From assembly GCA_038127095.1 (NCBI GenBank), contig JAYPGZ010000001.1, forward strand, positions 72,205-136,204: a stretch of DNA of 64,000 bases, given 5' to 3'. Positions 4,680 through 55,473 of the stretch are shown here, one piece after another. A model generated the notes under the pieces. That model searched no databases. It was not told the DNA's origin and saw only the letters and a program-made list of their open reading frames with translations. Both the position numbers and the translations under genes were made by a program. The stretch's first letter is position 1, and each line of letters opens with the position of its first letter. This stretch comes from Candidatus Roizmanbacteria bacterium (lineage in GTDB: Bacteria > Patescibacteriota > Microgenomatia > UBA1406 > HO2-37-13b).

Positions 4680-5150
4680 ATGAAAATTCTTAGTCTTGAT
4701 TCAGGAATTGAGCGGACCGGATATGCAATTTTTGAGAAAAACTCACAGGGTTATACGTATATAAACTGTGGCATTGTTGTAACCGATAAAAAATTACCGC
4801 TTGTAGAACGCTTACGTACCCTTGCTGTTGCGCTTCACACGCTTATAGAGCAATACAAGCCTGACACAATGGTAGTAGAGCAATTATTTTTCAACACCAA
4901 TGCTAAAACGGCGATTACCGTTGCACAAGCGCAGGGCGCCACACTCTTGGTTGCTTCTAAACACAATATTCCTGTGGAATTTCTTTCCCCATTAACCATT
5001 AAGCAAGTAGTCACCGGCGACGGACGGGCAGATAAAAAGCAAATGAAAAAAATGCTGGAATTTTCAATACAGTTTGTTCAAAAACCAGAAACAGATGACG
5101 TTTATGATGCCGTTGCGTGTGGAATGGCATATTGTATTTTAAATAGATGA
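4680..5150 (+). CDS. ruvC: Holliday junction resolvase RuvC
   Basis: MKILSLDSGIERTGYAIF... matches RuvC N-terminus and catalytic-acid spacing. RBS GGAGGGG lies 4 nt upstream of ATG 4680. Confidence 0.85.
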   Translation: MKILSLDSGIERTGYAIFEKNSQGYTYINCGIVVTDKKLPLVERLRTLAVALHTLIEQYKPDTMVVEQLFFNTNAKTAITVAQAQGATLLVASKHNIPVEFLSPLTIKQVVTGDGRADKKQMKKMLEFSIQFVQKPETDDVYDAVACGMAYCILNR

Positions 5151-5165
5151 TACAATTGAAAAACT

Positions 5166-20366: not shown

Positions 20367-20827
20367 TTGTAAAGTTTTAGCCTATTCCTAGGAATAGTAT
20401 ATCCAAGCGTTGTACCGCGACATTTAACATGTAACCGAGTATTACTATTCCACGATACAATCACACTTGCCACTTCTTTATCGAATAGTAGGCGCATTAA
20501 ATCTATATCATGCCATTCCAATGTACAGACTTCCTGATCCGCACAGACTAAGCATATAAGTAAATTTTTATCGGTTTGAATTTCTCGTAGTTTTACGATA
20601 TCAGACTCAGTAAATGTAAAAGAAGAATAATGTCTTCCTTTTCTACCAATTCTTACACCTGAAGTTGATTTGACAAAGATTTTATGTGTTATGTGGTTAT
20701 CAGTTATTTCGTAGGCGCTCCACTCAAAATCATCGCTCTTCTCAAGCAGCTTTACGTTCACAAGTGTGCTTCGAATTATTTGACATAACACTGCTCCATG
20801 GTAAAGTTCAAATTTTGATATAGCCAT
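20357..20827 (-). CDS. hypothetical protein between SNF2 helicase and mod
   Basis: 156-aa ORF, 10-nt overlap with mod, 9-nt gap to the SNF2 gene; no recognisable motif. Confidence 0.5.
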   Translation of the reverse strand: MAISKFELYHGAVLCQIIRSTLVNVKLLEKSDDFEWSAYEITDNHITHKIFVKSTSGVRIGRKGRHYSSFTFTESDIVKLREIQTDKNLLICLVCADQEVCTLEWHDIDLMRLLFDKEVASVIVSWNSNTRLHVKCRGTTLGYTIPRNRLKLYNWS

Positions 20828-20836
20828 TTTAATTAA

Positions 20837-23797
20837 TTAAATGATCTGCCACCTTATAGTAAACAGCGGTTCTAGTTTAGATTGCTGGGTCAATCGAGAT
20901 TCAACTGTCTCAAGCAACTTCTCTTTCTTTAATTCTACATCATCCTGTGTTTCAAATAATCTCTTCCTCATCTCATTCCTCTTCTTCTCCCAATCTTTGA
21001 TTTCGCGTTGAGCAATCAATTTTTCATCAAGATTTAATATTTTTTTTGCATTTGTTTTTGCAGTTTTTATATCAATATCAAGTTTCCTTAAATCGAGTTC
21101 CAATGCCTTTTTAACATCCTCAGCCCAGTTGTCCAACTTATCTACTTCATGATCAAAAAAGCTACCATTACGTTCAGCAATCTGACTAGTTGTAATCTTT
21201 AGATATTTATTCTCCAGTTCATCGATTTCTGTTTTTAGTTTTGGTGAGATAGCATATTGTCCTCCGATTGTAGCTGACAATTGAAATATCTTCTTAATAA
21301 CCTCTGGTTCAAGTACATCACCATCATCAGTTATAGCTGAAAACAGAATATGATCTTCTGACTCAAATGACTCAACTGTCAAGTTTGAGATTTTCAGAAT
21401 GCCCCCTTTACCTATGAGTGGCTGTAATACAGTAATAATTGTTTGGTTGTTAGAGTAGTTAAAAGCTACTTCTGCTTCATCTGACGGTCGAGATTTAATG
21501 TCATTCAATATCCTTTGAGCTAATGAATGAGCGGGTCTATACACATGTGCGTCCTCAATATTTTTTCCAATCTTATATGGGCCCGGATCAATATTCTCGC
21601 CTTCAAAAGGGTTTCGTTTGAGAACAAAAGAATATTCATTGTCTGAAAAATCAGCATTGTCTCCCAAATAGAATTTAGTTGTATCCCACAACCATCTATT
21701 ATAAGTATCTAAATACATGGCGCTTTCTCTTAAGTTGATTTTAAGTTTTTCGTGAACTTCAGCATCGAAGTTTTCGAGAAGTGTCTGCCGTGTATCTGAA
21801 AGATTATTCTTAATACTCTCATCCATTTCCTCTTGAAGGGCATCAAACGCATTATTGATTTCTTCAGTTGTTCTACATTCTTGATATATGTTGGCTATGC
21901 GCTTTTCAAAATCTACTCCAGACTCAATTGTTCCCAATACCTCGTCACTTGCACCAAAAACCCCTTTGAAAAGTTTGAATTTTTGATCAAGCAGATCATA
22001 AACCCTGCTATCAGCAGCATTTTTTCGGTTTACAAAGTTTATAACCACAACATCATGTTTTTGACCATATCGATGGCATCTACCAATACGTTGCTCGATA
22101 CGTTGTGGATTCCACGGCAAGTCATAGTTAATAACTAAAGAGCAGAATTGTAGATTTACCCCTTCAGCCGCAGCTTCAGTTGCGATCATAATTTCAGCTT
22201 CATCTCGAAAATACTCAATGAGTGCGGATCGCATATCAGCAGTTTTTGAACCTGTAATTTTGTCTGTATCCTTATTTTCCTCTAACCATTTAGCGTAGAT
22301 CTCCTTTGATTTAGGATCATTATTTGAACCATTGAAAAGTACAATTTTGCCTTTATAGCCATTCTCCGGCAACAGTGTTTCAAATAGGTACTTCTGTGTA
22401 ATAGTTGACTCAGTGAAAATGATTGCTTTCTGTTTAGCTCCCAATTCATGAGTCATCTCAAACCCCTTTTTAAGCGCAATAAGTAGCGCATCGCCCTTTG
22501 AATTGTTGAAGATTGCCTTGGCGAGGTCTCTAAATTTTTTAAGATCAACTTTCTCCTTTTCCATCAATTGAATATCTTCTTTAGTAAATTCTTTAGTTTT
22601 CTTCCCTTTTTCTTCATTTTCATCCTCATCTTCCTCATCATCAATCCACTCATCCGATATTTCATCAAAACCTTCAAAGTTCTGAGCCAAATCTGTGGTA
22701 TCGAATTCATTTTGAGTACTTTTTAAGGATATTTTAGCTTCATCTATGAGATAGCCCAACTTGATAACAAGATTATTTAATGTGCTTGCAATAGCAAAGG
22801 ATGAAGAGGCTAACAACTTGCGCAGTATTAGTGTCATTAGTTGACGCTGGCTAGAAGGTAGCGCATAGAGCGTTGGCCTTTGTAGGTATTCGGACATCCC
22901 ATCGTATAGCTCTACTTCCTGTTTTGTAGGTGTGTAATCCTGAGTGATGGGGCGTCTCTCGGTGTAATTGATATATTCTAAAACTTGCCTACGCAGGGTT
23001 CGGATACATACTACTTCTAAACGTTTTCTAAGGTCTAAAAACATTTCCTGTTTTGGCTCAACAAGTCCGACTTCATTTTCGTAAATATCTTGTTCACGTG
23101 AAACTCGAGCGTAGTTTGCCTTAAAACTTCTAAGGTCCCCAAAAACATGATCATCAATAATGCTTACCAGACCATATAATTCCAATAAAGAGTTCTGCAG
23201 TGGGGTAGCAGTAAGTAATATTTTTGGGACACCAGCAAGAGATTCCTTAATATCTCTAGCAATCTTATTACTTGTTTTATAAACATTTCGAAGTCTGTGT
23301 GCCTCATCAATAACTGCTAGGTCCCATTTTGTTTGCTTAACATATGGCGCCTTAGTTCTGGCAAAGTGATATGAACAGATTACAATCTTATCGTCTTGAT
23401 TAAAGGGATTAAGATTGCCATCTTTAATACTTTGATTAAATGATTTTGTCTCAAGAATTAAGGATGGCAAAAAAAACTTTTCCTGCAACTCAGTATTCCA
23501 CTGTTTACGCAAAGCAGCTGGTACAATGAGTAATATATTTCTCTTTCTTTCAGCCCATTTTTGAGACAATACCAACCCAGCCTCGATTGTTTTGCCCAAA
23601 CCTACTTCATCAGCAAGTATGGCTCCCCTGGAAAGAGGCGATTTAAATGCAAATAGCGCAGCTTCTATTTGGTGAGGATTGAGATCAACTTGAGCATTTG
23701 ATAGTGTTGAAGAAAGCTTTTCTAGACTATCGGATGAACACCGTTTTGTCAGCTCATAGGCAAAATATTTTGCATGATATGGAGTAATTTTTGTCAT
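20837..23797 (-). CDS. SNF2-family (Rad54/Swi2-like) helicase with ~400-aa uncharacterised C-terminal region
   Basis: ILADEVGLGKTIEAG (motif I), VIDEAHRLRN (DEAH box), ...LLTATPLQN, QRIGRCHRYGQ (motif VI); an acidic E/D stretch separates the two RecA lobes. Confidence 0.8.
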   Translation of the reverse strand: MTKITPYHAKYFAYELTKRCSSDSLEKLSSTLSNAQVDLNPHQIEAALFAFKSPLSRGAILADEVGLGKTIEAGLVLSQKWAERKRNILLIVPAALRKQWNTELQEKFFLPSLILETKSFNQSIKDGNLNPFNQDDKIVICSYHFARTKAPYVKQTKWDLAVIDEAHRLRNVYKTSNKIARDIKESLAGVPKILLTATPLQNSLLELYGLVSIIDDHVFGDLRSFKANYARVSREQDIYENEVGLVEPKQEMFLDLRKRLEVVCIRTLRRQVLEYINYTERRPITQDYTPTKQEVELYDGMSEYLQRPTLYALPSSQRQLMTLILRKLLASSSFAIASTLNNLVIKLGYLIDEAKISLKSTQNEFDTTDLAQNFEGFDEISDEWIDDEEDEDENEEKGKKTKEFTKEDIQLMEKEKVDLKKFRDLAKAIFNNSKGDALLIALKKGFEMTHELGAKQKAIIFTESTITQKYLFETLLPENGYKGKIVLFNGSNNDPKSKEIYAKWLEENKDTDKITGSKTADMRSALIEYFRDEAEIMIATEAAAEGVNLQFCSLVINYDLPWNPQRIEQRIGRCHRYGQKHDVVVINFVNRKNAADSRVYDLLDQKFKLFKGVFGASDEVLGTIESGVDFEKRIANIYQECRTTEEINNAFDALQEEMDESIKNNLSDTRQTLLENFDAEVHEKLKINLRESAMYLDTYNRWLWDTTKFYLGDNADFSDNEYSFVLKRNPFEGENIDPGPYKIGKNIEDAHVYRPAHSLAQRILNDIKSRPSDEAEVAFNYSNNQTIITVLQPLIGKGGILKISNLTVESFESEDHILFSAITDDGDVLEPEVIKKIFQLSATIGGQYAISPKLKTEIDELENKYLKITTSQIAERNGSFFDHEVDKLDNWAEDVKKALELDLRKLDIDIKTAKTNAKKILNLDEKLIAQREIKDWEKKRNEMRKRLFETQDDVELKKEKLLETVESRLTQQSKLEPLFTIRWQII

Positions 23798-25097: not shown

Positions 25098-25871
25098 ATG
25101 ATACATACAAACATAACTAACAAACAAAAAGAAATACTTCTTCTTCTCTACCGATTCCGGTTTCTCAACAGACAGCACATACAAACACTCCTTCGTCATA
25201 AAAACAAAAAGAATATAAACACGTGGCTCAAAGATCTCACAGAAAAAGGATACATAAACAGAATATTCAAACGATCATGGACAGAAAACTCAGTACCGGC
25301 AAAATACTACATCGCACTCAATGGCATACGATATCTTAAAACCAATCCAGACTGTAAAAAAGAATATCTTCGTAAGCTTTATCGTGAAAAGGACCGCTCA
25401 CAAAAATTTATCGATAAATGTCTCTTTATTGCAGACATTTACATTCGGTTTTTGAAAGACTCTGTGGAAAATATCACCCATTATCAATTTTCCACACAAT
25501 CTGACTACACGCCCGGCAGCATCGTAACCGACATCATGCCCGATTTTCTGGTCATTACAGGAAACAACAATGTAAAACAATACCATCTCTTCCAGCTATT
25601 TCCTGAGGGAACGCCCCGTTTTGCAGTTCGCAAGCGTATTGAGCAATATATGACATTTTTAACTGAGGAAGACGGCACGCACTTAAATGCTGTTCTTCAC
25701 CTTGTGGCACATACTGAGGCATTATATGTATATTTAACTCGCCACACTGAAAGAATCCTTGAGGATGAGAGTATATCGGTACCAATTCGAGTACTATCGT
25801 ATGATCAGATCGCACAGCACGGATTACAGCTTGAAGACCCGGAAACAACTGATGAGTCAGAACTCGAGTAG
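25098..25871 (+). CDS. replication-relaxation (Replic_Relax-like) winged-helix protein
   Basis: N-terminus LTNKQKEILLLLYRFRFLNRQHIQTLL... resembles Replic_Relax family proteins of conjugative/mobilisable elements; assignment by pattern only. Confidence 0.45.
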   Translation: MIHTNITNKQKEILLLLYRFRFLNRQHIQTLLRHKNKKNINTWLKDLTEKGYINRIFKRSWTENSVPAKYYIALNGIRYLKTNPDCKKEYLRKLYREKDRSQKFIDKCLFIADIYIRFLKDSVENITHYQFSTQSDYTPGSIVTDIMPDFLVITGNNNVKQYHLFQLFPEGTPRFAVRKRIEQYMTFLTEEDGTHLNAVLHLVAHTEALYVYLTRHTERILEDESISVPIRVLSYDQIAQHGLQLEDPETTDESELE

Positions 25872-25877
25872 CACATC

Positions 25878-26294
25878 CTACATCAGCCCTTTCTCCTTCA
25901 TGCTTATATATGTACCCTTCGCATAAATAATATGGTCGATAACCTTTATACCCAATATATTTCCGGCATCAATCATCCGTCTGGTTGAGGCAACGTCTTC
26001 TGAGGACGGATTAGGATCACCAGAGGGGTGATTGTGGGCGAGAATAATCTGCGATGTGCATTCTCTCACTGCTCGAACAAACACTTCCCGCGGATGAACC
26101 AGTGACGCATTGAGTATTCCTATACTTACCAGCTCAAACGTTGTAATATTACTCCGTGCATCAAGATGAATTACAAAAAAATGTTCTTTATGACGATCAA
26201 TACCGTCTTGTGTCTTAAAAAACCTATCAAGCAAATTATAGAGCCCTTTCGAATTACTTATTTTTTTCATTGACTCACTGACTTTTATTTTCAT
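25878..26294 (-). CDS. radC: RadC-like JAB/MPN domain protein
   Basis: ILAHNHPSGDPNPSSEDV is the RadC/JAMM signature (HxHPSG...PS..D). Confidence 0.7.
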   Translation of the reverse strand: MKIKVSESMKKISNSKGLYNLLDRFFKTQDGIDRHKEHFFVIHLDARSNITTFELVSIGILNASLVHPREVFVRAVRECTSQIILAHNHPSGDPNPSSEDVASTRRMIDAGNILGIKVIDHIIYAKGTYISMKEKGLM

Positions 26295-26367
26295 ACTAGT
26301 GGAATTAAAATTTTTAATAAAAAACCGCAGGCAACGGTTACGCCCGCTACCTGCGGCTTACAACACC

Positions 26368-26661
26368 TCATCTTTTGGGCAACTCAGACAACCGACATGG
26401 TGTAAAGTACCTATCTCGTTCAACCGGCAGTCCCAATGCGCCTCGTACTGTACTGATCTCTGAAAGCGAAAAATACCCAAGTTCCCGTTCAAACCCATCG
26501 ACCAGGCCGTAAAATGTGTCATTACCATCAAATTCAACGACATACCACGTCCAGCTTGAGTCTGGTGTAAAAAACTTACACCATACCATCGGATCTTCAG
26601 TATTCTCACTTGCATACAACTTCGGCAGCTTGCTGCGGATATCTGCAGTCAATAGCATCAT
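26368..26661 (-). CDS. DUF2958-like protein (common on conjugative elements)
   Basis: FFTPDSSWTWYVVEFDGNDTFYGLVDGFERELGYFSLSEI; strong RBS GGAGGTGGGG 3 nt before the Met-Met start, so the start is moved from the ORF-track 26724. Confidence 0.5.
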   Translation of the reverse strand: MMLLTADIRSKLPKLYASENTEDPMVWCKFFTPDSSWTWYVVEFDGNDTFYGLVDGFERELGYFSLSEISTVRGALGLPVERDRYFTPCRLSELPKR

Positions 26662-26909
26662 AAACCCCACCTCCTTTCGATATGAAAATTGATAAATCAG
26701 GTCAGGTATGCTCCTGTCCTTCAAAAAAGGGGCATGGGGTGAAGACGTAGGCTGTCAAAAGTTTCGCAAGAAAGGATTGTAATGCCTGTCAGAAAAATGA
26801 TGACATCAATAATGAACAGTCATTATTGTCATTTTTCTACAGGTTTACATACCCGCCTTTTGACAGATGCGGCAAACCCCATAAAATAGGAAAGAAAGGA
26901 CAGGAGAGA

Positions 26910-27326
26910 CTAGCTTTGTTTAGGTTTTTCAATCACCTGAAGATACATAGAATAGTCATAATCTGCATTACCTTTTTCAAGAACATATTTTCCGGTTGGT
27001 TCATTCCCAAGCACTATACATGGAACAGCTGACTGAGCAAGTTCAAGATAGGAATAATAGGTACGATAGTCATCACTCATAATAAATAGGTCATCCTTTT
27101 GATACACATGTAAGTATGGATATCTGCCAGCTTTGATATCCATAAGCACACTATGAGAAAAGGCAGACGATGGTTCCGGTTTATATTCTGAAAATGGTTT
27201 GATTCCTTCGATTTGTATGACCGCTTTATAGAAAGGAAGCTGCTTTTGCAGCACTTTCCTAAAAAGTTCTGAAAACATAGAATCCATTGGGATTTTATTG
27301 TCTATTTTTATATCTGAAATGTTCAT
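26910..27326 (-). CDS. hypothetical protein (possibly ParB-like nuclease domain)
   Basis: 138-aa ORF; weak resemblance to the ParB N-terminal domain (...IVLG...), not secure. Confidence 0.35.
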   Translation of the reverse strand: MNISDIKIDNKIPMDSMFSELFRKVLQKQLPFYKAVIQIEGIKPFSEYKPEPSSAFSHSVLMDIKAGRYPYLHVYQKDDLFIMSDDYRTYYSYLELAQSAVPCIVLGNEPTGKYVLEKGNADYDYSMYLQVIEKPKQS

Positions 27327-27555
27327 GGGTGATTAGATATGCTAAAAAGACCTTCAGCCGGTCACAAACTAGTAGTGCTGACTATTATAGCAGTATTTAT
27401 GCGATAACAGACAAAGGGATGGTAAGTATTAAGGTTTTTTAGAAATTTATTTTCTCGAATTTTTCTGATAAGAAAAATTAAAACGGCGAGGTAAAAAGCC
27501 TTGAAGTATCTGTTTCCGGAATCCGTTCACTATAATAGGGATTTTATTTATATAT

Positions 27556-28608
27556 ATGCCTATAACTGTGAACAATTCAACATATAAAACGCTTATCAGC
27601 ACTGATAATATATTTAAGGCATGGTATGCCTTTCGGAAAGGAAAGCGAAAAAAGCCCGATGTAATGTTCTTTGAGCGCCATCTTGAAGATAATTTGTTTG
27701 CACTGCAGGATGATCTGGAGAAGGGTCAGTACCGCCATTCGGGATATCTTGAATTTACGGTACAGGATCCTAAAAGTCGACTCATTCACAAACCACATGT
27801 CAGAGACAGGGTTGTTCACCAGCTTCTGTATGAATATCTCTATAAACTTTATGACAAAACTTTTATCTACGACTCATATTCATGCAGAATTGGTAAGGGA
27901 ACGCATAAGGGTGTCGGAAGGCTTATTCAGTTTAGTATAAAAGAATCGCAAAACTATTCACGTAGCTGCTGGAGTGTAAAATGCGATATAAAGAAGTTTT
28001 TTGCAAACATTGATCATAAAGTCCTTCATGATATTCTCGTACGTAAAGTACATGATCCACTTATACTTTTTCTGCTTGATATCGTTATTGACAGCTTCCA
28101 TACGAAAGATGCCCTTGGCAAAGGCCTCCCATTAGGAAACCTCACCAGTCAGATATTTGCAAATATTTACATGAATGAATTTGACCAGTTCATAAAACAT
28201 AAGCTTAAGGTTATATATTTCATTCATTATGCCGATGACTTTATCCTGGTTTCACATAACAGAGTATATCTTGAACAGCAAATTGAGCCAATGAGAACAT
28301 TTCTGAAAGATACCCTAAAATTAACTATGCACCCTGACAAAGTTATCTTTAGAAAACTCGACTGGGGTATTGATTTTTTAGGGTATATTGTGCTTCCCCG
28401 GTATGTTTTACCCAGAACTGCAACAAAGCATCGCATATTCAGAAAAATAAAGAAACGTGCAGATGAGTATCTCGATGGTGATATTTCCATGTATCAGCTG
28501 AGACAGTCGGTACAGTCATACCTTGGATATCTGTCACATACTGACGGATATAAGCTTTCACTGGAAATTAAAAATTACGTCTGGTTTCTGACGGGCGAAT
28601 CAGTATAA
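27556..28608 (+). CDS. diversity-generating retroelement (DGR) reverse transcriptase
   Basis: RT motifs 1-7 including FIHYADDFIL (YxDD) and the DGR-specific LGNLTSQ variant in motif 4 (LPLGNLTSQIFANIYM). Length (350 aa) and the adjacent Avd/TR/VR support the call. Confidence 0.85.
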   Translation: MPITVNNSTYKTLISTDNIFKAWYAFRKGKRKKPDVMFFERHLEDNLFALQDDLEKGQYRHSGYLEFTVQDPKSRLIHKPHVRDRVVHQLLYEYLYKLYDKTFIYDSYSCRIGKGTHKGVGRLIQFSIKESQNYSRSCWSVKCDIKKFFANIDHKVLHDILVRKVHDPLILFLLDIVIDSFHTKDALGKGLPLGNLTSQIFANIYMNEFDQFIKHKLKVIYFIHYADDFILVSHNRVYLEQQIEPMRTFLKDTLKLTMHPDKVIFRKLDWGIDFLGYIVLPRYVLPRTATKHRIFRKIKKRADEYLDGDISMYQLRQSVQSYLGYLSHTDGYKLSLEIKNYVWFLTGESV

Positions 28609-28967
28609 TGAATGGCACTATGTTTCAGCTTGATATTCCGCTTCTTGACAAATTATATGCGTTTTATAAAGAAATCACAGTTGTTATTGTTTCCTTCCCA
28701 AAATCACGTAAATATACACTCGGAGAGCATATTGAAAGACTGACCCTTGAGATTATTGAACTTGTCATATCTGCCGGATATAAACCAAAGGAGGAGAAGC
28801 TGGAGACCGTTTATGAGATCAGTGCAAAGCTTGATGTTTTGAAAATGCTGGTTCGCCTAGCTTATGAGACAAAATGTATGCAGAGCAAGGATTACCAGTG
28901 CCTGTCAGCTGATCTTTCAGAGACCGGCAAAATGACAGGCGGCTGGATCAAATCCTTAAAACAGTAA
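28608..28967 (+). CDS. avd: Avd-like four-helix-bundle accessory variability determinant
   Basis: 119 aa; FPKSRKYTLGEHIERLTLEIIELVISA matches the FPK..K..L..Q..R...SI pattern of Avd / four-helix-bundle (23S rRNA-IVS protein) family; start overlaps the RT stop by 1 nt. Confidence 0.7.
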   Translation: MNGTMFQLDIPLLDKLYAFYKEITVVIVSFPKSRKYTLGEHIERLTLEIIELVISAGYKPKEEKLETVYEISAKLDVLKMLVRLAYETKCMQSKDYQCLSADLSETGKMTGGWIKSLKQ

Positions 28968-28977
28968 TGGAACGCTC

Positions 28978-29089
28978 TCAGGGGACGGAAACCGGTATTG
29001 TCATTGTGATTGGACGCATTGTTCCAATTGACGTTCGACAAACCACCATTATCGGAATTACCACCGATGAGACGGCTATCGGAACCGAA
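28978..29089 (-). repeat. DGR template repeat (TR), sense on minus strand
   Basis: 112 nt identical to 29472..29583 except at 21 positions, all of which are T on the plus strand (A on the minus-sense TR). Non-coding: lies between avd and the target gene's 3' end. Confidence 0.85.
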
Positions 29090-29455
29090 CCAACGTGCTT
29101 CTCTCCTATTCCGACTCACTGTGCCCAGATTACTCCACAACACTGTATTTTATACGTTTTATCTTTTTATGAAATAAAACTAACAGAGAAGCACACACAG
29201 CTTTCCTTCCTGTTTATATTCCCGCCGGCATATTTACGCTTCTTTTCCCACATAAGAGAACAGAACTCTGAAAGTGATGCCGGGAGAAAGCAGAGCAGCC
29301 GGCAGGCGTACCTGACCGGATAGTGGCTTTGCTAAGGTCAATTGTAGCAGATAATATTCGGAAATCTCAAAAAATTTTTTGGCTTCGCCAAAATCCAAGA
29401 ATCCAATACACAAAACACCAATACAAGAACCAAGATAATCAAGAGTACAAGGATT

Positions 29456-32017
29456 TTAGGAAGAGAAAACTATCAGGGGACGGAAACCGGCATAGTCAAA
29501 GTGAGTGGACGCAAAGTTCCAATGGACGTTCGACAAACCACCATAAGCGGAAAAACCACCGATGAGACGGCCATCGGAACCGAATTGATCATGCATCCAT
29601 TCATATGTACTTGTTTCACCCCATTCCGGATGATCTCTATTGCCTAGTATGTTGAATTCGATCTCACGCATATTACGCGCCTGTACATGTTCCGGTAGTT
29701 CAAGTAAACGCTGGAGGGCAGGGTAGAAATGCTCATATTGTTCATTTGGGGATATCTTTGCACGGGAATTGGCAGCTGCGTTTGGGCCAATACCCTGAGC
29801 TCTCAGATCTTCGAGAATGGATGCCCATGGGTCATTGGCGTAAACCTGACTACCGTTGTAGTTTCCGTTACTATCTTGTGCGGCGTTTGGTTTTGCGGTT
29901 ATATCAACTACCGCCCAGAACCCGCCAAGTTTTGCTGCATCCTGAGCAAGTTTTTTATTCGGACCAATCTCATTCCAGAAGTATGTATCATTCGGCGTCT
30001 TTATCCATCCTGGATAATCATCATCTTTCTTAAATTCTCTTTGGGGAAAGTAAACAGGTTTAAGGTGATCTCTTATGCCAAGTTCCTCTGCTTTTGCAAG
30101 AGCATCAAGAAGTTCCTGTGGAGGAGGAGGTACTTCTATTTCCTGTCCCAGAAACTCCCTCCATTTGTATGATTCCGCTTCCCGAAGTTCATGTTCCTGT
30201 AATGAATCTGCTGTGCGTTCACTTCTTCCCTGCATTGGGTTTGAAGTAGCCTGCGTTTCGCCTGCAGCCATTTCTGACGGTAGGATATAGCCTTTTTCTT
30301 GTTCTTCAATCTCAACCTGTATTTGGGGAGATACAGCATCCCTTGTTAAACCAAATGAATGAAGCACTTCCAGCAATGTTTTTCGCTCCTCAGGAACACT
30401 GAGCGTTTTAGGGTCGTTAATGAATTCGCCTAGTTTTTTCTGCATGTACGTTGCAAAATCATCACCCCTCGCGCGGGATAATTTCCATTCACCAAAGAGT
30501 TTAAACAATGTTCCCGGATCAAGAAAATTTGTATTAAGTGTTGTTTCTGTATTGTTTTGAGGGTCAATTCCAAGTGATGTTTTCATCGCTGGAGTAAAAC
30601 CAGCGAAATCACGATTATGTATCTGCTGCATCATTTGAGCCGCTTCAGACAATCTTCTAATATAATCAGCTTCAGCTTTACTCAGCCCCAGTACTCCATT
30701 TTCTTCAATCAATGTGGCCTTGATAACATCAGCCATTTCTGCGGCCGGCATATAACTAACCTCTACTCCTGTAAGCTCCCGTAAAATCGCCGGATCCATA
30801 TCTTCCCGCTGTTTTGTTCGCTCATCTTTAGGATTACCAGTCAAGATTTCGACGAAATTATTTGTGACATCAAAAACCTGTCCATTAAATCCTGGGATTT
30901 GAATTCTATCCCCTGGCCGTGCCCCTTGCATAAATTTTGTAGCAAGCTGCGTTCTGGTTGATCCTCCCGTATATTCATCGTGTAATACTCCGACTCCTCT
31001 TTCCAAAGCCTTTGGTACAGGTCCGGTCTTCATGCCACTTTGAACTCCTCCTTCATCATCAGTCCAAAGCTCACGATATCCAAACACATCTCGAGGAGTG
31101 GTTCCTTCATGCCAATTGATAATCTCATACCCTCCCGTCAGTGAATTTAACACATACAGACCCAGCTTGGTTTTCCCTGTACCAGTTGAGCCGACAAGAA
31201 AAATTTTGTTTCCTGCAATTGCTTCACGCGACATGCGGTCAATTAATTCTAAACGGGAAGGAGTCAGCACAACACCGTTTTCTTCGAGTTGTTTTTTATA
31301 ATCTAGCATCCTTTGCGCTTCAAGATAACCCAAGGTTGAGGGAGAGGCAGTTTCAACAATGCCAGATCGCTTTGCTTTTAGTTCGTCCAGTTTTCCTTGG
31401 AAAAGACCAATTTGATCAGCAGCACTTTGTGTCAGCGTGCCATGTTGTTGAGTGCTGTCTAAATATCTTCTATAAATTGCAAGTCGTAGTTTCTCTGTTA
31501 CCCGGTCAATATCCCGTACCTCTCTCATAGGACGACGCGCTGCCTGAAAGTGGGCAAACTCCCTGTCAAATTCTGATTCAAAACGCTCGCGTACTTGCGG
31601 TTGAGATAGAAGATCAGACAACTTTAGTCCTATTACGTCCCTATGTAAAGCAGAACTCGGAGCTTCTTCGTTTGTTGCATCGGGCGTGCCATCATGCGCA
31701 TCCCATGATCTTACGTTATTAGGTAGTAATAAATTGTCAAGTTGTCTCTCCAAACTATTCAGATCATCTCCTTCCTCAAGCTGTATGTCTGGTACGACGT
31801 GATCCGGAGTACGATAATATTCCTCAAGATATCCTAACACTGAAAAGCATTTATCCTGAACATCTGCTGGAGATAATTCTGTTGAGGCAGTAGCACTTGC
31901 TTCGTTTGGTATAAACCTGCGAAAAGAAAGAGGTGCAAGACGATGGCGTGCATGTGTGATTTGTTGTACGGAAAATGCTTCTGTTCCTGTTGGTTCGGAC
32001 ATAATCGTATTATACAA
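29456..32017 (-). CDS. DGR target protein: MoxR-like AAA+ ATPase with C-terminal lectin-like (FGE/CLec-fold) variable domain
   Basis: Walker A FLVGSTGTGKTKLG, Walker B VGVLHDEYTG; C-terminal ...WxW...GFRPL containing the VR; no signal peptide or TM helices. Confidence 0.75.
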   Translation of the reverse strand: MYNTIMSEPTGTEAFSVQQITHARHRLAPLSFRRFIPNEASATASTELSPADVQDKCFSVLGYLEEYYRTPDHVVPDIQLEEGDDLNSLERQLDNLLLPNNVRSWDAHDGTPDATNEEAPSSALHRDVIGLKLSDLLSQPQVRERFESEFDREFAHFQAARRPMREVRDIDRVTEKLRLAIYRRYLDSTQQHGTLTQSAADQIGLFQGKLDELKAKRSGIVETASPSTLGYLEAQRMLDYKKQLEENGVVLTPSRLELIDRMSREAIAGNKIFLVGSTGTGKTKLGLYVLNSLTGGYEIINWHEGTTPRDVFGYRELWTDDEGGVQSGMKTGPVPKALERGVGVLHDEYTGGSTRTQLATKFMQGARPGDRIQIPGFNGQVFDVTNNFVEILTGNPKDERTKQREDMDPAILRELTGVEVSYMPAAEMADVIKATLIEENGVLGLSKAEADYIRRLSEAAQMMQQIHNRDFAGFTPAMKTSLGIDPQNNTETTLNTNFLDPGTLFKLFGEWKLSRARGDDFATYMQKKLGEFINDPKTLSVPEERKTLLEVLHSFGLTRDAVSPQIQVEIEEQEKGYILPSEMAAGETQATSNPMQGRSERTADSLQEHELREAESYKWREFLGQEIEVPPPPQELLDALAKAEELGIRDHLKPVYFPQREFKKDDDYPGWIKTPNDTYFWNEIGPNKKLAQDAAKLGGFWAVVDITAKPNAAQDSNGNYNGSQVYANDPWASILEDLRAQGIGPNAAANSRAKISPNEQYEHFYPALQRLLELPEHVQARNMREIEFNILGNRDHPEWGETSTYEWMHDQFGSDGRLIGGFSAYGGLSNVHWNFASTHFDYAGFRPLIVFSS
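29472..29583 (-). repeat. DGR variable repeat (VR) encoding the last ~37 aa of the target protein
   Basis: Direct alignment with TR; every mismatch corresponds to a TR adenine (minus sense), e.g. AAY(N) to TTY(F)/TAY(Y)/CAY(H)/ACY(T), GAY(D) to GCY(A). Confidence 0.85.
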
Positions 32018-32021
32018 AATT

Positions 32022-34676
32022 TTATAATTTCGATAAATGCTTCATTAGTAATTTATGTCGTACAAGCGTTGCCTGCCGAACGTCATCAATGACAACGGCA
32101 GCATCCGGATCGGCAGGGTCATGACAGACAACTTTAATATCTTGAGCAGCGCTTCCAAATCCAATACCCTGAACAATAATTCCTGCAGCTCGTAATTCTC
32201 CAATTAAAGCAACGCACTCCGCTTGGTTTGTTACATCTCCGTCTGAAACAATAGTCAAAACCTTAGAATGTCCGCCTGCCCTAATTTTCTGAACTGTCTG
32301 TGGATCAAGCGCGTCACGATATTGCTGTAATGATGCCTGTAGCCCTCGTGATGATTGGTTGTGAGCTTTTAATGTACCGTCAAGCTGTACAAGGCCTTTC
32401 TCGGATATTTCACCTGTTGATTCCTGAGCAACACTTGTCCAGTCACCAAATACAGCGACTCTTGAACGGACTGAAAGAGGGGTCGTCATATGTCTTTTAT
32501 ATCGTGAATGTCCTAACCGTTCGTTTAGATTTTTAATGTTGTATTCACTACTTAACACCATCTTTCGCTGTTCCTCAGCTGGCTGACCACTCATTGATCC
32601 CGAAATATCTAAGATAAAGTCATCTTCAAAAACAGAAACTTCAATTCGCTCTCTTTGTCTTTCATGTGATTTTTGGTACCCTGATGGATCATCCTCCTGT
32701 GAACGAACGTCAATATATGCAGTTACGGGATCGTCTAAAAATTCACCTTCACTTTGCCTGACGGGTCCTTTATATGCTGCATGGGGAATTTCTCTCCGCC
32801 TATAGAGAAGCTCAAATAAATCACGCCATTCCTGGTATAACGTACTTGGCCTATGACTAATACTTGCTTCGGCAGGAACTGGAGTCCGATTTACTCCATT
32901 TATCCATGATTCCAGTTGATTCCATTCACGCAATGACACACCTTTTTCCTGTTGGAATGCCTCAGCCGCACGTTGCTCCTGAGTTTGTGTAGGTAAAGCA
33001 GCTCCATCATCCTGCTTAGTTAGTTCTTCATACAGCAGTTCTATTTCTTCCTGACTTAATTCGGGTTGCTCAACCGTTGATTCTCCAAAATCACCATCAA
33101 GGGGTTGCGACTCCTCAGCTTGATCCGGTGATTCATCCTGCGCCTTTGGTGGAGTTGCATCCATACCACGATGAGTCCATTTTTTTGCATGAGGATCCCA
33201 TATCTCTCCCCATGCATGCTTATCCACACCTGGTGCTTCTACTACGGTAAACTCGAATCGAGGATCTTTACTATTAATATATGGCCCTGTTGCAATTCGA
33301 GAAGCAATTCCAAGTCTTTTACACAACTCGTCTCGGAAAATATTTGCCCAATAACAATGAGCAACACCTGTTTCAGCAATTTTTGTCCATATATCGTCTC
33401 CTGCGGACAAATATAACGAGTCTATCTGTCCTATTTCCGCTTCATCAGCCGGATAACGGAGTTTCTTACGAACATAGAGGACAACTTCCCGCGCTTTTTG
33501 AACATCATTCATCCAGTTTTGACCGGATAGTTCATCAAGAAATAATTGTGTTTCTGGATCTACATTTCCGCCTACTGGAGTCAAGTCATCTTCTGTGGGT
33601 GGCATGTCCAACTTATTTGATTGGGTTTTAGCTAAAACAAAGTCAAATGAAAATTGTCCTGTTGGTGCTGTTTGTACTTGTGTTTGTCTTGGGTCAAGAT
33701 ACACGATTCCTAAGTCATCACGCATAAGCTGGAATGCTCCTGGGGGATTAAGGGTTGAAGCAATAGGGAGTGTGCCATAGGGCAGTTTGATAAGAGTTTC
33801 ATCACCTGGCTGAATAGTTCCCTCATATGTCCTTCTTGTTTTCCAGATAGCTTCATCTTCGGGAACATCATCTATATCCCATGTTTGTTTGGTGCCAGCT
33901 TCTTTGACAATCTGGCGGGTAACAGGATCATAACGACAAACTTGCTCACGGTAATACCCTCCATAAAATGGCGTGACACGAACAGTGATATCCGATTCCT
34001 GCAGCGGTTCTTTGTCTCCGGCCACATCCTGTGTTTGAGATGGTCGATATTCAAATTGCTTTGATTGACCGGTCTGTCGGTCGGCAGCAGTAAGCTCATC
34101 AATAATTGGTTGAATATGAGTTGTAAAATTCTGACCGTCAAACCTTAAATATCGTCCTGAGGCAATATAATCAATTAAACTACGTCCCTTCGTGCGAGGG
34201 ATATCTGTTATTGCTTTGCGAACCGGATCTGAAACTGTATCGGGATATTTACCGGTTAGTATATATGTATCGAGTGCCCATTGGAATTCCTGAGCAAGTG
34301 TTTGATTTTGAGGAGTAATTGGCTTATCGCGAAGAATATCAGGATTACTTTCTCTCAGTCTTGCCAGTCCTTGCCATCTGAGGACTGGCTCACTTGCTTC
34401 TGGATACCTGCGGGCGGATTCTATTAAGAGGTTTGCATTAGTACGTAGAGCCTGTGTGAGTCCGATATGTCCGGCAACTTGTCGTACTATTGCAATGCGG
34501 GCCTGATCGATATTTGGAAACAATGCTGTATTAACAGAAAGTTCTGAACGATCATCAGACCAGGCAATTCGTATTCCAGTATCTCGAGTTTTTACCGCAA
34601 TACCGCCAAGTAATTCACTTGGTTCAGAAGGTGGAGCAGTAGTTTCTGTAATATCTGCAGTTGGTTGCTCTGCCAT
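32022..34676 (-). CDS. transglutaminase-like cysteine-protease-fold plus von Willebrand factor A (vWA) domain protein
   Basis: GVAHCYWANIFRDELCKRLGIASRIATGPY...HAWGEIW (transglutaminase-like Cys/His core) and C-terminal DISGSMSG (MIDAS DxSxS)...VLTIVSDGD; 4-nt gap to the downstream AAA gene. Confidence 0.7.
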   Translation of the reverse strand: MAEQPTADITETTAPPSEPSELLGGIAVKTRDTGIRIAWSDDRSELSVNTALFPNIDQARIAIVRQVAGHIGLTQALRTNANLLIESARRYPEASEPVLRWQGLARLRESNPDILRDKPITPQNQTLAQEFQWALDTYILTGKYPDTVSDPVRKAITDIPRTKGRSLIDYIASGRYLRFDGQNFTTHIQPIIDELTAADRQTGQSKQFEYRPSQTQDVAGDKEPLQESDITVRVTPFYGGYYREQVCRYDPVTRQIVKEAGTKQTWDIDDVPEDEAIWKTRRTYEGTIQPGDETLIKLPYGTLPIASTLNPPGAFQLMRDDLGIVYLDPRQTQVQTAPTGQFSFDFVLAKTQSNKLDMPPTEDDLTPVGGNVDPETQLFLDELSGQNWMNDVQKAREVVLYVRKKLRYPADEAEIGQIDSLYLSAGDDIWTKIAETGVAHCYWANIFRDELCKRLGIASRIATGPYINSKDPRFEFTVVEAPGVDKHAWGEIWDPHAKKWTHRGMDATPPKAQDESPDQAEESQPLDGDFGESTVEQPELSQEEIELLYEELTKQDDGAALPTQTQEQRAAEAFQQEKGVSLREWNQLESWINGVNRTPVPAEASISHRPSTLYQEWRDLFELLYRRREIPHAAYKGPVRQSEGEFLDDPVTAYIDVRSQEDDPSGYQKSHERQRERIEVSVFEDDFILDISGSMSGQPAEEQRKMVLSSEYNIKNLNERLGHSRYKRHMTTPLSVRSRVAVFGDWTSVAQESTGEISEKGLVQLDGTLKAHNQSSRGLQASLQQYRDALDPQTVQKIRAGGHSKVLTIVSDGDVTNQAECVALIGELRAAGIIVQGIGFGSAAQDIKVVCHDPADPDAAVVIDDVRQATLVRHKLLMKHLSKL

Positions 34677-35213: not shown

Positions 35214-36224
35214 ATGAAGTTTATCTATACACTTCTCATTCTTTCAATATTTCTTTTTAACACGTCTTCCGTTCTTGCCCAAAACTCTCCAACACCCACG
35301 TCAAAACCTCAAGTTCAATATACAAACGAATTTACCGTTGAAAATCAGCCCTCTGGGGTTGTGACATTGCTGCAGGATTTCATAAAAGGTTTTGATTCCT
35401 TTGTCGGAGGATTTGTCTTTTATACCCCAAATCCCCTTGATAAAACGATTACCTTACAAGATAAATCAGAAATACCCGGAGTTACTAAATACCGCGATAT
35501 GTTCTATCAGATTGCCATACCCGTACTTGCTATTATTATTGCGGCTATTGCCGTTTCAAAGCTTGGATCGGATAATACCCAAGAGCTCAAAAACTTTGCC
35601 GTACGGTTTGTCATAACCATCGTCTTATTCATCACCGTACCCCACGCCCTCTCATACAGCATACAAGCAAATAACTTACTCGTTGAGAAAATATCAACGA
35701 CACAAAAGTTCACGGGCTTTTTAGATGACTACTTTACCAAAACCCAAGAAAAGATTAATCAAGGTGAAAGCGCAGAGCAATATGGTATTCCGTCATTTGA
35801 TATATCGCTTATCGGAGGCATTTTCAAATCCTTTGGTAAATTCATCGTTCAGATATTTCTTTTTATCTTAACCTTCTTGTTTCTTCTTATGGGTTTCTTG
35901 TACTTAGGTTTCCAATTTGTTATCCGTTTTGCTGCACTTTTGTTTCTAGGTGTATTGTATCCAATCATCATTCCCTTTATGTTGTCTGAGAAAACACAGC
36001 CGATTGTACAAACATTTTTCAAATCGTGGCTCACGTTCCTGATCCAACAACCAGCCTTTGTTCTGGGCTTTGCGATTGCTACTGATATCTTTACGAGCAT
36101 TCTCCAGTCAAAAGGCCCGAGTGTAGGCATGCTTTTCTTCTATACCGGCTTCTTATTTTTCCTCGGCGGCGTGAATATCTTGGTCTCCCGCATCTTCGGG
36201 GGGCTGGACGGGCGAGACTCTTGA
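35214..36224 (+). CDS. VirB6/TrbL-like polytopic membrane protein
   Basis: Signal peptide (…SSVLAQNSP), soluble region, then ≥5 TM helices in the C-terminal half; position next to the pilin gene. Confidence 0.4.
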   Translation: MKFIYTLLILSIFLFNTSSVLAQNSPTPTSKPQVQYTNEFTVENQPSGVVTLLQDFIKGFDSFVGGFVFYTPNPLDKTITLQDKSEIPGVTKYRDMFYQIAIPVLAIIIAAIAVSKLGSDNTQELKNFAVRFVITIVLFITVPHALSYSIQANNLLVEKISTTQKFTGFLDDYFTKTQEKINQGESAEQYGIPSFDISLIGGIFKSFGKFIVQIFLFILTFLFLLMGFLYLGFQFVIRFAALLFLGVLYPIIIPFMLSEKTQPIVQTFFKSWLTFLIQQPAFVLGFAIATDIFTSILQSKGPSVGMLFFYTGFLFFLGGVNILVSRIFGGLDGRDS

Positions 36225-37403: not shown

Positions 37404-38213
37404 ATGAAAAGTGTGCGGATATATAAAGACAATATTCGAGAACATGTATTGCGAAGTCTATTTTTTACCGATACCGCAATTGCTATCGGCGGAGCGATTG
37501 TGATTGCTGCCGTCGTATTTGTCATATTCAAATATTTCCTGCATTTCTTTGATTGGGGATATTATGGATTGACGGTTCTTACCTGCGAAGTGTTTTTCAT
37601 TGGACTGGTTACGCAAAAGCTTGATAATCAGCCTATCTACAAGATTGTGCCACGGGGATTGAAACATTCGGTAAGCAAAAAGAATTTACGCCATGCTGAT
37701 ATTGATTCATACTTCACTGACTTTGCAATTCAAGACAATCTGATTGTCCGCAAAAACAGTATTATCTCGATGCTTGCGGTTGAGCCGTATGACATTGCAC
37801 TCCTTAATGATCAAGACCGAGAACATTTCTTTGTCAAAATCAAGCAAATGATCCATGTCTTGCCCTCAGGAGTCCAGTTTATTATCAGAAAAGAAAGAGC
37901 AACGATGGAAGAATATTCAAAGCATGTGTCTTCCTTATACAAAGATGCCAACACTAAACGAGAACCACTGATTCACAATTACTTAAAAGATCTATCAGAT
38001 CTCATCAGTAACCACTCATTTGTCACCATGCGCCACTACGCGGTGTTTTCCGTCAGTTGTGACAGCAAAAAGGCCAATGAAAAGGTAAAAGCAATCAAGA
38101 AGTTATCAGATATGAGTATTCGATTTGCCTCGGCATTGTCTGCCTGCAATATTACGGCTACACCACTTACAAACAATGAACTGTTACACGTTGCAACCAC
38201 CACCCTACGATGA
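37404..38213 (+). CDS. membrane protein, possibly VirB3-like / VirB4 N-terminal-like partner
   Basis: Two N-terminal TM helices; 4-nt overlap with the VirB4-like ATPase gene. Confidence 0.4.
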   Translation: MKSVRIYKDNIREHVLRSLFFTDTAIAIGGAIVIAAVVFVIFKYFLHFFDWGYYGLTVLTCEVFFIGLVTQKLDNQPIYKIVPRGLKHSVSKKNLRHADIDSYFTDFAIQDNLIVRKNSIISMLAVEPYDIALLNDQDREHFFVKIKQMIHVLPSGVQFIIRKERATMEEYSKHVSSLYKDANTKREPLIHNYLKDLSDLISNHSFVTMRHYAVFSVSCDSKKANEKVKAIKKLSDMSIRFASALSACNITATPLTNNELLHVATTTLR

Positions 38214-40366
38214 GAAAAACAACCAAAAAACAAACCAATGGGAAACATCCGAACAAGGTACTTATTACGCTGGATCGCTTTAATGTGAGTCGAAAGCTAA
38301 AAGAAGAAGTAGAGCTTTTAAGTATTGAAAAGGCAAAGAAGGTATATGAACTTAACAAAGTCCTGAAGGAATACAAACTTTATGAAAAGAAAAATACGGG
38401 ACTGCAAAAAATTGAGGAACATTTCTTTAATGGAGAACCAAAACTGCACCAAAATGCACTCACCCTGGCACTTCGGGAAGAAATTGGGCGACTCATGGAT
38501 ATTATCAAGTCACAACAGGAGATGATTGCCAAAGAATCATTTGTGCAGAATGAATTACCACAAATACGCAAGCCTGAGTTTGTTGCAAGCAACAATCCGA
38601 TCAAGCTACTTCGCAATTACCGAGCATATAAAAAAGAATTGCAAGAATATCATCAGGCTATCCATGAATCAAATATAACTGATTTTCATTTTGTCCTTGA
38701 AAAAGATGAAAAAGGATTAGTCATTGAGCGAGATGGAACCAAGAAATACAAAGCAGACTATTTACAGGAAAAAAGTTCTCATTTGCAAGTCGGTGAAAAA
38801 GTCAGGCGATTCTACTATTTAGCTGATATTCCCGCTTACTTAAGTCCCTATGTGTTTTTTAGACTGCTAACTTCCAGTTTACCGTTTACCTTAAGCGTCT
38901 TTGTACAACCAACACCGAGTGGTGAACTTTTGAAAAAAGCCAGACAAAGACTCTCTGTCTTGGAAATGCAGCAAAACGATCGGTTGAAAGCTGGAAAACT
39001 CAGAGATCAACAGATTGATAAAAATATCGAGGAGGTTATGTCCTTTATTGATGAACTTGTGCATGAAGCCGAGAAAGGGATTGTGTATTCATTGTATTTA
39101 CAGCTTGAAGCTGACAGTGAAAAAAAACTCGCTGCGCTTCATAAGCAACTCCAAAACGTAACAAGTGCGATGGATATTACATTTAATCAATATACCTTCG
39201 GTCACAAGAGAGCATTCAAGAATTTCTTACCCTTTAATCAAGATCATGTCAAAGAAAATAGGATTTTGCAGTCAACGGCAGCTTCATACTTGATGCCGTT
39301 TGTGTCAAAACAGTTAAATGATCACAATGGTATTTTTATGGGTGTGAATGCATACAATAATAGCTTGGTGTTTATTGATCCATTTACCTCCCGAAACAAT
39401 AATATCAACATCTTTGGTGTCTCGGGGTCTGGTAAAAGTGTGACAGCTAAAACCTTGATGAACCGCCTCTATATGCGTGGTGTGCAAATCATTGTCATTG
39501 ATCCTGAAGGAGAATATATTGATCTTGCCAGATCTTTAGGAGGAGAAGTTATTCAATTTTCGAGAGAGAATGGGATTAACCCTTTTTATATCAATAGCTC
39601 TAATGAAAATGATATTTTAGATCATATCTCAACGCTTAAAACCTTCTTCAAATTCTTTATCCCCGAACACCACTACGATGGCGCACTTTTAGATGAAAAG
39701 CTCATTAAGCTCTATGACAGCTCATCGCCGTCATTTGAGAACTTACTGGAGCTTCTAGGTGATAGTCCCATGACACGAGATTTGAGTGTGTTATCAGATG
39801 GAAGTTTGCGGGGTGTATTTAACTCAACTCGACGACTTGAGCTCAATAACGACATCATTGTCCTTGATTTGCATGACCTGAAAAAAGATGAGAAACGAGA
39901 TCCTGCCATCTATCTTTTGACGTCGCTTATTTGGAACTTGGTTAATAAGGCAAATGGTAAGAAACGCATGCTCTTTATTGATGAAGCGCACAAGTTACTG
40001 GTTGATCCAGAGGTCGCTGTATTCTACCGAGAATTGGTCAAGCAGGCTCGTAAGCGCAATGTGGGAGTCGTGTCGATTACGCAGGATGTCGAAGACTTTT
40101 TGCATAATGAATATGGCAAAGCGATTATTACGAACTCTGAAACAAAAATTTTACTCAAGCAATCATATGCCACGCTTGATCAGATTGGCACGATTTACCC
40201 CATGACGGATGAGGAAAAACAGCAATTGGGACATTTGGAGATTGGAGAAGTAGTACTTTTCAGAGAAGGAGAACATATTCGACTCAATATCTTAGTATTA
40301 CAACATGAGCAAAACTTAGTATTTACCTCATTTAGTACTTCGCATGAGTCTGATCAGCAAAGTTAA
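38210..40366 (+). CDS. VirB4/TraC/TrbE-like conjugative ATPase
   Basis: Walker [27 protein letters not shown], Walker B KRMLFIDEAHKLL, C-terminal ...VSITQ. Confidence 0.75.
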   Translation: MRKTTKKQTNGKHPNKVLITLDRFNVSRKLKEEVELLSIEKAKKVYELNKVLKEYKLYEKKNTGLQKIEEHFFNGEPKLHQNALTLALREEIGRLMDIIKSQQEMIAKESFVQNELPQIRKPEFVASNNPIKLLRNYRAYKKELQEYHQAIHESNITDFHFVLEKDEKGLVIERDGTKKYKADYLQEKSSHLQVGEKVRRFYYLADIPAYLSPYVFFRLLTSSLPFTLSVFVQPTPSGELLKKARQRLSVLEMQQNDRLKAGKLRDQQIDKNIEEVMSFIDELVHEAEKGIVYSLYLQLEADSEKKLAALHKQLQNVTSAMDITFNQYTFGHKRAFKNFLPFNQDHVKENRILQSTAASYLMPFVSKQLNDHNGIFMGVNAYNNSLVFIDPFTSRNNNINIFGVSGSGKSVTAKTLMNRLYMRGVQIIVIDPEGEYIDLARSLGGEVIQFSRENGINPFYINSSNENDILDHISTLKTFFKFFIPEHHYDGALLDEKLIKLYDSSSPSFENLLELLGDSPMTRDLSVLSDGSLRGVFNSTRRLELNNDIIVLDLHDLKKDEKRDPAIYLLTSLIWNLVNKANGKKRMLFIDEAHKLLVDPEVAVFYRELVKQARKRNVGVVSITQDVEDFLHNEYGKAIITNSETKILLKQSYATLDQIGTIYPMTDEEKQQLGHLEIGEVVLFREGEHIRLNILVLQHEQNLVFTSFSTSHESDQQS

Positions 40367-55470: not shown

Positions 55471-55473
55471 AAT

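Follow-up and report, generated by a model that had tools for sequence, protein, structure and literature searches.

A stretch of 64,000 nucleotides from the genome of Candidatus Roizmanbacteria bacterium (GenBank assembly GCA_038127095.1, contig JAYPGZ010000001.1, forward-strand positions 72,205 to 136,204; called the window here and numbered from its first letter) carries a diversity-generating retroelement (DGR) whose template repeat (TR) is read from the minus strand, antisense to both the reverse transcriptase (RT) gene and the accessory gene avd. We consider it probable that this is a functional-looking DGR of the type found in the Candidate Phyla Radiation (CPR; Patescibacteria), organised as two convergent transcription units. 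The orientation of the RT adds little in itself, being one more natural case, in another lineage, of an RT that does not have to come from the RNA copied. The most useful outcome is a conserved leader RNA, absent from Rfam, which lies 5′ of the TR with a likely promoter; the window breaks the presumed usual link between RT and template, while the block formed by leader, TR and avd stays intact despite the flipped RT.

Identity and layout of the retroelement

We identify the locus as a real DGR because of the adenine pattern in a pair of repeats and because of the domain matches of its RT and Avd proteins. Uninterrupted homology over 112 nt joins the TR (28978-29089, minus strand) to a variable repeat (VR; 29473-29584, minus strand) that forms the 3′ end of the target gene. 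A repeat finder returned a single family here (28963-29089 and 29458-29584, spaced by 495 nt), and the 30-nt core of the repeat occurs exactly twice in the 64-kb window, where no copies are expected by chance. Read on the minus strand, all 14 of the 14 mismatches have A in the TR and G, T or C in the VR; the mismatch sites are in-frame AAT/AAC codons, and non-adenine differences and indels are absent over the 112 nt. The last A-site difference is followed by 18 nt of G+C-rich sequence, CCGGTTTCCGTCCCCTGA, identical in TR and VR, beyond which the two diverge; judged by its sequence, it occupies the usual position of the initiation of mutagenic homing elements (IMH in the VR, IMH* in the TR), giving the TR an IMH*-like 3′ end. 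The VR falls within the last 43 codons of an intact minus-strand open reading frame (ORF) at 29456-32017. A first-pass annotation of this DNA had assigned the template to the minus strand, in the same sense as the target, as the A-site mismatches bear out, and had set the TR 367 nt past the target stop codon; from that codon (29456) to the 5′ end of the TR (29089) we measured 366-367 nt. The end coordinate that it gave, 29583, was one base short of the end of the repeat at 29584.

The same annotation had placed RT and avd on the plus strand, and domain searches agree. The RT gene (27556-28608, plus strand, 350 aa) matches RVT_1 with an E-value of 6.7e-21 and encodes both LGNLTSQ, which fits the DGR motif-4 signature [ILV]GxxxSQ, and YADD, the catalytic YxDD motif; PLGNLTSQ is invariant among 31 aligned RT homologues. 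The closest homologues, at 55-59% identity, are RTs of CPR/Patescibacteria DGRs, so that by sequence the RT groups with the CPR DGR clade, and at least 110 homologous RTs lie beside adenine-biased TR/VR pairs of their own. The avd gene (28608-28967, plus strand, 119 aa) matches bAvd (PF22296, E 3e-20), and its homologues likewise adjoin the RT in relatives. An exact look-up of the 119-aa Avd found no match; public gene calls probably begin at an alternative start, 28620, giving 115 aa. The RT stop and the avd start overlap by one base (TAATG), and we propose that the two genes are translationally coupled. Only 10 nt separate the avd stop from the TR.

The wider clade was surveyed through 161 related loci (L001-L161), for which 80 genomic and 80 metagenomic loci with related RTs were fetched. 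A scripted search for adenine-biased repeat pairs and Avd homologues found a TR/VR pair in 115 of the 161. One layout, VR(+) TR(+) avd(-) RT(+), accounts for 110 of these 115 and corresponds to the ‘B3’ TR-(avd)-RT architecture. The window, with RT(+) avd(+) TR(-) VR(-), was matched by no other surveyed locus (1/115). Followed along the TR strand, the window reads target-VR >, TR >, < avd, < RT and the clade norm reads target-VR >, TR >, < avd, RT >: order and avd orientation are the same, and the RT alone has been turned round. A TR antisense to avd, a few hundred nt (~340) behind the target, is ordinary for this RT clade, in which the spacer between VR and TR has a median length of 338 nt (5th-95th percentile 278-419) against 368 nt in the window. 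The earlier statement that the TR lies antisense to avd and RT is correct on both counts, but its avd part describes the clade norm (110/115) and only its RT part is unusual, with a TR antisense to the RT in 3/115 loci, reached through two different rearrangements.

The second of these rearrangements, TR(-) avd(-) RT(+) VR(-), was found in two of the 115 loci, L017 (191-2087) and L026 (7248-12260). Here avd is followed on its own strand by the leader and TR, the RT diverges from them, and one or more VRs are found beyond the RT, again on the avd strand, L026 having two VRs ~3 kb apart. In both loci the TR and leader are ~1.7 kb from the VR, with the RT gene between them. Two further loci, L104 and L108, have the layout TR(+) avd(-) RT(+) VR(-): they keep the usual arrangement of TR, avd and RT, but the VR that pairs with the TR comes after the RT, on the other strand. 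One 9-kb contig (L056) holds two separate adenine-biased TR/VR pairs (1380-1941 and 5009-5933) and may represent two DGR cassettes or one RT serving two templates.

Since the source is a metagenome-assembled genome, the inverted RT might be an assembly artefact, and a 14-nt imperfect inverted repeat (27583-27596/28655-28668), with arms close to either end of the RT gene and a short way in from the 5′ ends of RT and avd, could be taken to point the same way. We regard this as very improbable: a separate assembly, the 2780-nt Logan contig L081, is 100% identical to the window over 26825-29604 and has the same gene order, and inversion between the 14-nt repeats would have cut RT and avd, both of which are intact and share their 1-base overlap. 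The repeat probably arose by chance, as recombination across it would disrupt both genes.

A structured leader RNA upstream of the template repeat

Immediately 5′ of the TR, on the minus strand at 29089-29207, lies a conserved structured RNA element, which we call the 3′ domain of the leader. In minimum free energy (MFE) folds of the relatives the same design recurs directly 5′ of the TR, and when folded in the TR sense their spacers are much more stable than dinucleotide shuffles (mean z -3.79, with 81% below -2; -2.84 on the opposite strand). Covariation was assessed on an unfitted MAFFT alignment of 108 loci with an RNAalifold consensus and 500 shuffles. In the 3′ domain, 89.0% of cells form standard pairs against 61.1% in shuffles, 596 cells are changed on both sides against 165, and the covariation score is 0.665 against 0.227, with none of the 500 shuffles scoring as high and values of 0.11-0.14 when the partners were slid. 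The domain consists of a 12-bp closing stem (P1), a hairpin (P2), a near-invariant junction (AUAAAAUACAG), a second hairpin (P3) and then CAGUG...AGAUGG, given for the window as CAGUG...GGA; the 3′ arm of P1 ends a few nt before the TR.

A first covariance model gave one hit in 70 of the 80 genomic loci, and in every locus with a located TR the hit adjoined the 5′ end of the TR, in the TR sense. The element keeps that place and sense in L017 and L026, in which the TR is antisense to the RT. A second model (R2), built solely from the hits in those 70 relatives with the window excluded, was run over both strands of the 64-kb window and matched at one place alone, minus-strand positions 29207-29089 (score 42.2 bits, E 8.5e-8). 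In the model-fitted alignment 95% of cells are paired. An RNA of the TR-sense strand is indicated by the abundance of G-U pairs in that sense (at one P1 pair, for example, UG occurs in 58 of 69 sequences). No match to Rfam 15 was found over 27300-29700 at E-values up to 1, and blastn detected no similarity between the spacer of the window and those of the relatives; the conservation of the leader is structural, not at the level of sequence.

Further upstream, at 29215-29334 on the minus strand, we recognise a putative 5′ domain of the leader, made up of a hairpin at 29299-29319 and a second stem-loop region at ~29215-29290. The hairpin has a 4+4 bp stem with one bulged base (CCGG-U-CAGG, loop UACG, CCUG-CCGG). 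In the relatives, the 5′ domain contains two covarying hairpins with YANG tetraloops, of which UACG is the commonest, and 92% of cells are paired against 42-52% with partners slid. The two upstream hairpins of the relatives are alike, each having a stem of ~8-9 bp, one unpaired base and a YANG tetraloop, and they recall the ‘Avd-binding stem-loop’ found 3′ of the TR in other DGRs (Handa et al.). The hairpin in the window aligns with the first of the two, its row fitting 17 of 20 pairs and keeping the UACG loop, and homology between the upstream half of the window leader and the 5′ domain of the relatives is plausible on this alignment. The first-pass annotation had quoted this same hairpin as the possible structural element of the DGR RNA. 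The spacer is indeed structured, but its best-supported element is the one at 29089-29207; the quoted hairpin gains from its alignment with a covarying counterpart and failed the covariance-model test described below.

On the other side of the TR, MFE folds suggest a possible stem-loop at 28885-28958 on the minus strand, antisense to the 3′ part of the avd coding sequence; it is a weak candidate for the equivalent of the structure located 3′ of the TR in the Bordetella phage DGR. In the relatives, the 130 nt that come after the TR fold moderately better than shuffles (mean z -2.2). We do not claim an element resembling the Bordetella phage spacer (Sp) 3′ of the TR, as RNAalifold found no consensus structure in this flank (antisense avd) of the relatives and the z-scores are about equal on both strands.

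Probable source of the template RNA and proposed supply in trans

Two sources of the TR RNA had been put forward in the first-pass annotation, namely the target-gene transcript, with the TR in its 3′ untranslated region (UTR), and a minus-strand promoter of its own. We favour the second, because promoter- and terminator-like signals are enriched in relatives in a strand- and position-specific manner. The promoter-like site in the window, at 29341-29370 on the minus strand, comprises TTGAGA, an 18-nt gap and TACAAT with an extended -10 (TGCTACAAT, 29349-29341), has a predicted start at ~29334 and is the best match in 27300-30000 (10/12 plus TG). A scan also found a terminator-like hairpin with a U-run (UUUUGGCGAAGCCAAAAAAUUUUUU) on the minus strand at 29367-29393 (hairpin 29393-29377), 63 nt past the target stop. 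Among the relatives, a strict extended -10 motif (TGnTA[ACT]A[AC]T) occurs on the TR strand in 47 of 108 spacers, compared with 7.1 in shuffles and 2 on the antisense strand. These sites lie 220-260 nt upstream of the TR in 42 of the 47 cases, with that of the window at 260 nt, and a relaxed -10 motif is found at the same position in 62 of 101 spacers against 3 antisense. Terminator-like hairpins with T-runs occupy the first 170 nt of 52 of the 108 spacers (10.9 in shuffles, 3 antisense), ending at a median of 78 nt after the VR (81 nt in the window).

On this evidence, the TR RNA is unlikely to be no more than a 3′ UTR of the target transcript, made by reading through the stop and spacer with no separate promoter and possibly processed later. 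As read-through would have it, VR, spacer and TR follow one another on a single strand in the window and in 110/115 loci, but in L017 and L026 the TR RNA cannot be a simple target 3′ UTR, given the ~1.7 kb and the RT gene that stand between TR and VR. According to Wu et al. (2017; PMC5758913), most DGRs are without a terminator behind the target, and the terminator-like hairpin in the window is weak, at 7 bp with 3 G-C pairs; in the relatives, however, terminator-like hairpins are enriched ~5-fold just before the promoter position. Strict matches to a terminator or an extended -10 are missing from about half of the relatives, yet the extended -10 is 6-7 times as frequent as in shuffles, falls nearly always on the TR strand and clusters 220-260 nt upstream of the TR, directly upstream of where the conserved RNA structure begins.

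With a promoter of its own for the TR RNA, the minus-strand unit of the window would run from the target gene and VR through the terminator-like hairpin and the promoter-like site to a non-coding RNA gene of ~360 nt or more. Its product would begin with a structured leader of ~245 nt (~29334-29090), continue through the 112 nt of the TR and finish in a 3′ tail that enters the end of avd in antisense. The plus-strand unit would be RT and avd, translationally coupled. RT-Avd would then use the conserved leader to bind, in trans, the TR RNA of the minus strand, and would copy the TR with adenine-specific errors, and the cDNA would replace the VR. The TR/VR pair with its strand, the identities of the genes, the layout across the clade and the conserved RNA structure with its strand are observed; use of the promoter and terminator, action in trans and the role of the leader are steps that we infer.

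The flipped RT bears on how the enzyme meets its template. In relatives, the avd and RT starts are divergent and ~5 nt apart (median; 5th-95th percentile -18 to +37), and so no intergenic space is left for a promoter. The simplest inference from this spacing is that their RT is translated from an RNA running through leader, TR and antisense avd, the enzyme thus being made from its own template RNA. In the window, the TR RNA cannot be co-transcribed with the RT because the two are on opposite strands; RT expression appears to be uncoupled from the template, and RT-Avd, expressed from the other strand together with avd, would have to find its RNA in trans. The gap between TR and avd also differs, at 10 nt against a median of 35 nt in relatives. 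In many relatives this ~35-nt gap holds a perfect G+C-rich hairpin, possibly a terminator acting in both directions or a stem-loop bound by Avd.

Several observations weigh against a working DGR in two convergent units. Taken alone, the spacer of the window folds a little better than shuffles but unconvincingly so (z -1.45 on the minus strand and -2.35 on the plus strand). A third covariance model (R3), drawn from the 5′ half of the leader and capturing only one 9-bp hairpin, missed the leader of the window; we rejected its best match there (48653-48762, E 0.019) as an A+T-rich chance match. The promoter and terminator of the window are consensus matches only, and the strict motifs are present in only about half of the relatives. 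A scan found no plus-strand terminator-like site after avd, and an RT-avd transcript may run antisense across the TR, because the 10-nt gap between avd and TR is too small for the hairpin of the relatives. Nor was variation in the VR seen as a sign of ongoing diversification, the sole other copy found (L081) being identical across the VR. That identity, the uniqueness of the layout among 115 loci and the loss of the hairpin-sized gap between TR and avd would also suit a relic, in which inversion of the RT broke its link with the template and the TR/VR differences predate the rearrangement. We think a relic quite improbable, seeing that the reading frames of RT, avd and target are intact, the RT keeps the invariant motifs of its clade, the TAATG overlap suggests an evolved operon, the TR and VR show neither non-adenine differences nor indels, the conserved RNA element still scores 42 bits, and the literature treats DGRs whose RT and TR lie on opposite strands as normal ones (PMC3521204; PMC5758913).

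Beyond the arrangement in two units, which we continue to prefer, we offer a hypothesis about the RNA parts that RT-Avd needs in the CPR lineage and their action in trans. Tentatively, and with a chance that we would place a little short of even, the scaffold that brings in RT-Avd and launches cDNA synthesis in this lineage would be a structured leader of ~240 nt, located 5′ of the TR and made from its own promoter, in place of a 3′ spacer like that of the Bordetella phage; leader and TR would then be a free-standing RNA gene served in trans, and the leader an undescribed RNA family. If the leader is such a 5′ scaffold, it would represent a permuted design of DGR RNA as well as a new family, and the flipped RT of the window, together with the variants L017 and L026, would show ‘leader + TR’ to be a unit that stands by itself. 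This could be of use in studying DGR mechanism beyond the single Bordetella model and in engineering compact DGR mutagenesis tools.

Neighbouring genes and comparison with known systems

The target gene (29456-32017, minus strand) encodes an 853-aa MoxR-like AAA+ protein (AAA_5, E 5e-6) with a C-terminal variable region that ends ...GFRPLIVFSS. Its C-terminal 299 aa had no match in Pfam or PDB sequence searches; resemblance to a C-type lectin/FGS-type fold is at the level of sequence only (N-rich template, ...GFRP ending). The gene upstream of it (32022-34676) encodes transglutaminase-like and vWA domains, and PADLOC gave no hit for the target or this neighbour. Kaur et al. (2020) linked vWA-MoxR ‘ternary’ conflict systems to DGRs in cyanobacteria and gammaproteobacteria, with the variable FGS domain usually fused to the vWA component. 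The target and its vWA neighbour (29456-34676, minus strand) are similar to these systems, but here the genome belongs to the CPR and the variable domain is on the ATPase instead of the vWA protein.

Around the DGR are genes of conjugation and type IV secretion (9365-11911, 25098-26724, 35214-36224 and 38210-40366), which include those for a TraD/VirD4-like coupling protein, a Replic_Relax protein, RadC, DUF2958, a TrbL/VirB6-like protein and a VirB4-like ATPase; chromosomal uvrA and uvrB follow at 52594-57489. The DGR may lie on an integrated conjugative element in this Microgenomates genome; the UvrB of the window shares a 90% cluster with a protein from a Microgenomates-group metagenome-assembled genome. 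A defence-like cluster on the minus strand (15938-23797) encodes adenine methyltransferase-like and restriction-helicase-like proteins and a DISARM DrmD-like SNF2 helicase, which matched at E 3e-207 yet fell below the curated cut-off. Beside the RT promoter region, a 138-aa ORF (26910-27326, minus strand) has a weak match to the DUF4263 domain of Shedu SduA (E 4e-6). We treat two plus-strand ORFs over the TR and spacer (28967-29323, 118 aa; 29323-29565, 80 aa) as spurious, as tblastn against the 161 loci matches only the part antisense to the TR; L081 has a gene call for the first of them.

Wu et al. (2017; PMC5758913) noted that TR and RT may be encoded on opposite strands, although in most DGRs they share one, as the first-pass annotation had also said of most DGRs. 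‘Inverted’ DGRs had been described in Shewanella baltica OS155, Vibrio sp. RC586 and Photobacterium angustum S14 by Schillinger, Lisfi, Chi, Cullum & Zingler (2012; PMC3521204), in whose scheme they are group 4. The RTs of all three form one gammaproteobacterial cluster, and the authors concluded, as Wu et al. also state, that the template RNA does not have to share a transcript with the RT mRNA. The opposite-strand layout is thus rare but already described, and appears here in another RT lineage. Like those examples, the window has the RT on one strand and the TR, VR and target on the other, with standard repeats and adenine mutagenesis; unlike them, it has a CPR-type RT. In the window, avd forms a coupled pair with this RT that stands tail-to-tail against the TR. 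The inversion is likely to have arisen independently, because the closest relatives of the RT are CPR enzymes and nearly all of these are in non-inverted loci.

CPR-type DGRs form an RT clade of their own that is almost confined to Patescibacteria (Roux et al.), and architecture B3, TR-(avd)-RT, makes up ~90% of the CPR set of Wu et al. (2017; PMC5758913). The window shares with B3 its RT/Avd lineage, the order of target-VR, spacer, TR and avd, the leader 5′ of the TR, and an avd that lies between TR and RT, antisense to the TR and tail-to-tail with it. In B3, the RT is on the TR strand, head-to-head with avd across a gap of ~5 nt, and the TR-avd gap has a median of 35 nt; in the window, RT and avd share a strand and overlap, with the RT first, and the gap shrinks to 10 nt. 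The window is, in short, an inverted-RT version of the CPR B3 architecture.

In the literature searched, coverage of which was partial, we found no published description of such a leader, and an earlier one is possible; in their survey of Avd-containing DGRs, Handa et al. looked no further than 40 nt upstream of the TR and 100 nt downstream. There is a precedent for a TR RNA made as a transcript of its own, as proposed for the window, in Trichodesmium erythraeum, in which the TR is an abundant separate non-coding RNA with its own mapped transcription start (Pfreundt et al., 2014; PMC4143802), although that DGR is cyanobacterial, has 12 remote targets and carries its TR downstream of the RT gene. 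In the BPP-1 DGR, non-coding RNA around the TR is needed for RT-Avd to work, and a duplex forms in the stretch directly 5′ of the TR (Handa et al., 2018; PMC6182149; preprint 10.1101/2023.10.23.563531). The same work describes stem-loops of ~9 bp with a flipped-out base and a tetraloop cap, which the UACG-capped hairpins of the CPR leader resemble. The two systems differ in where the structure lies: BPP-1 has a large structured Sp (~140 nt) 3′ of the TR, the seat of the priming site and of the Avd-binding stem-loop, and all its genes on one strand, whereas in the window the conserved, covarying part is 5′ of the TR and the TR is followed by antisense avd coding sequence.

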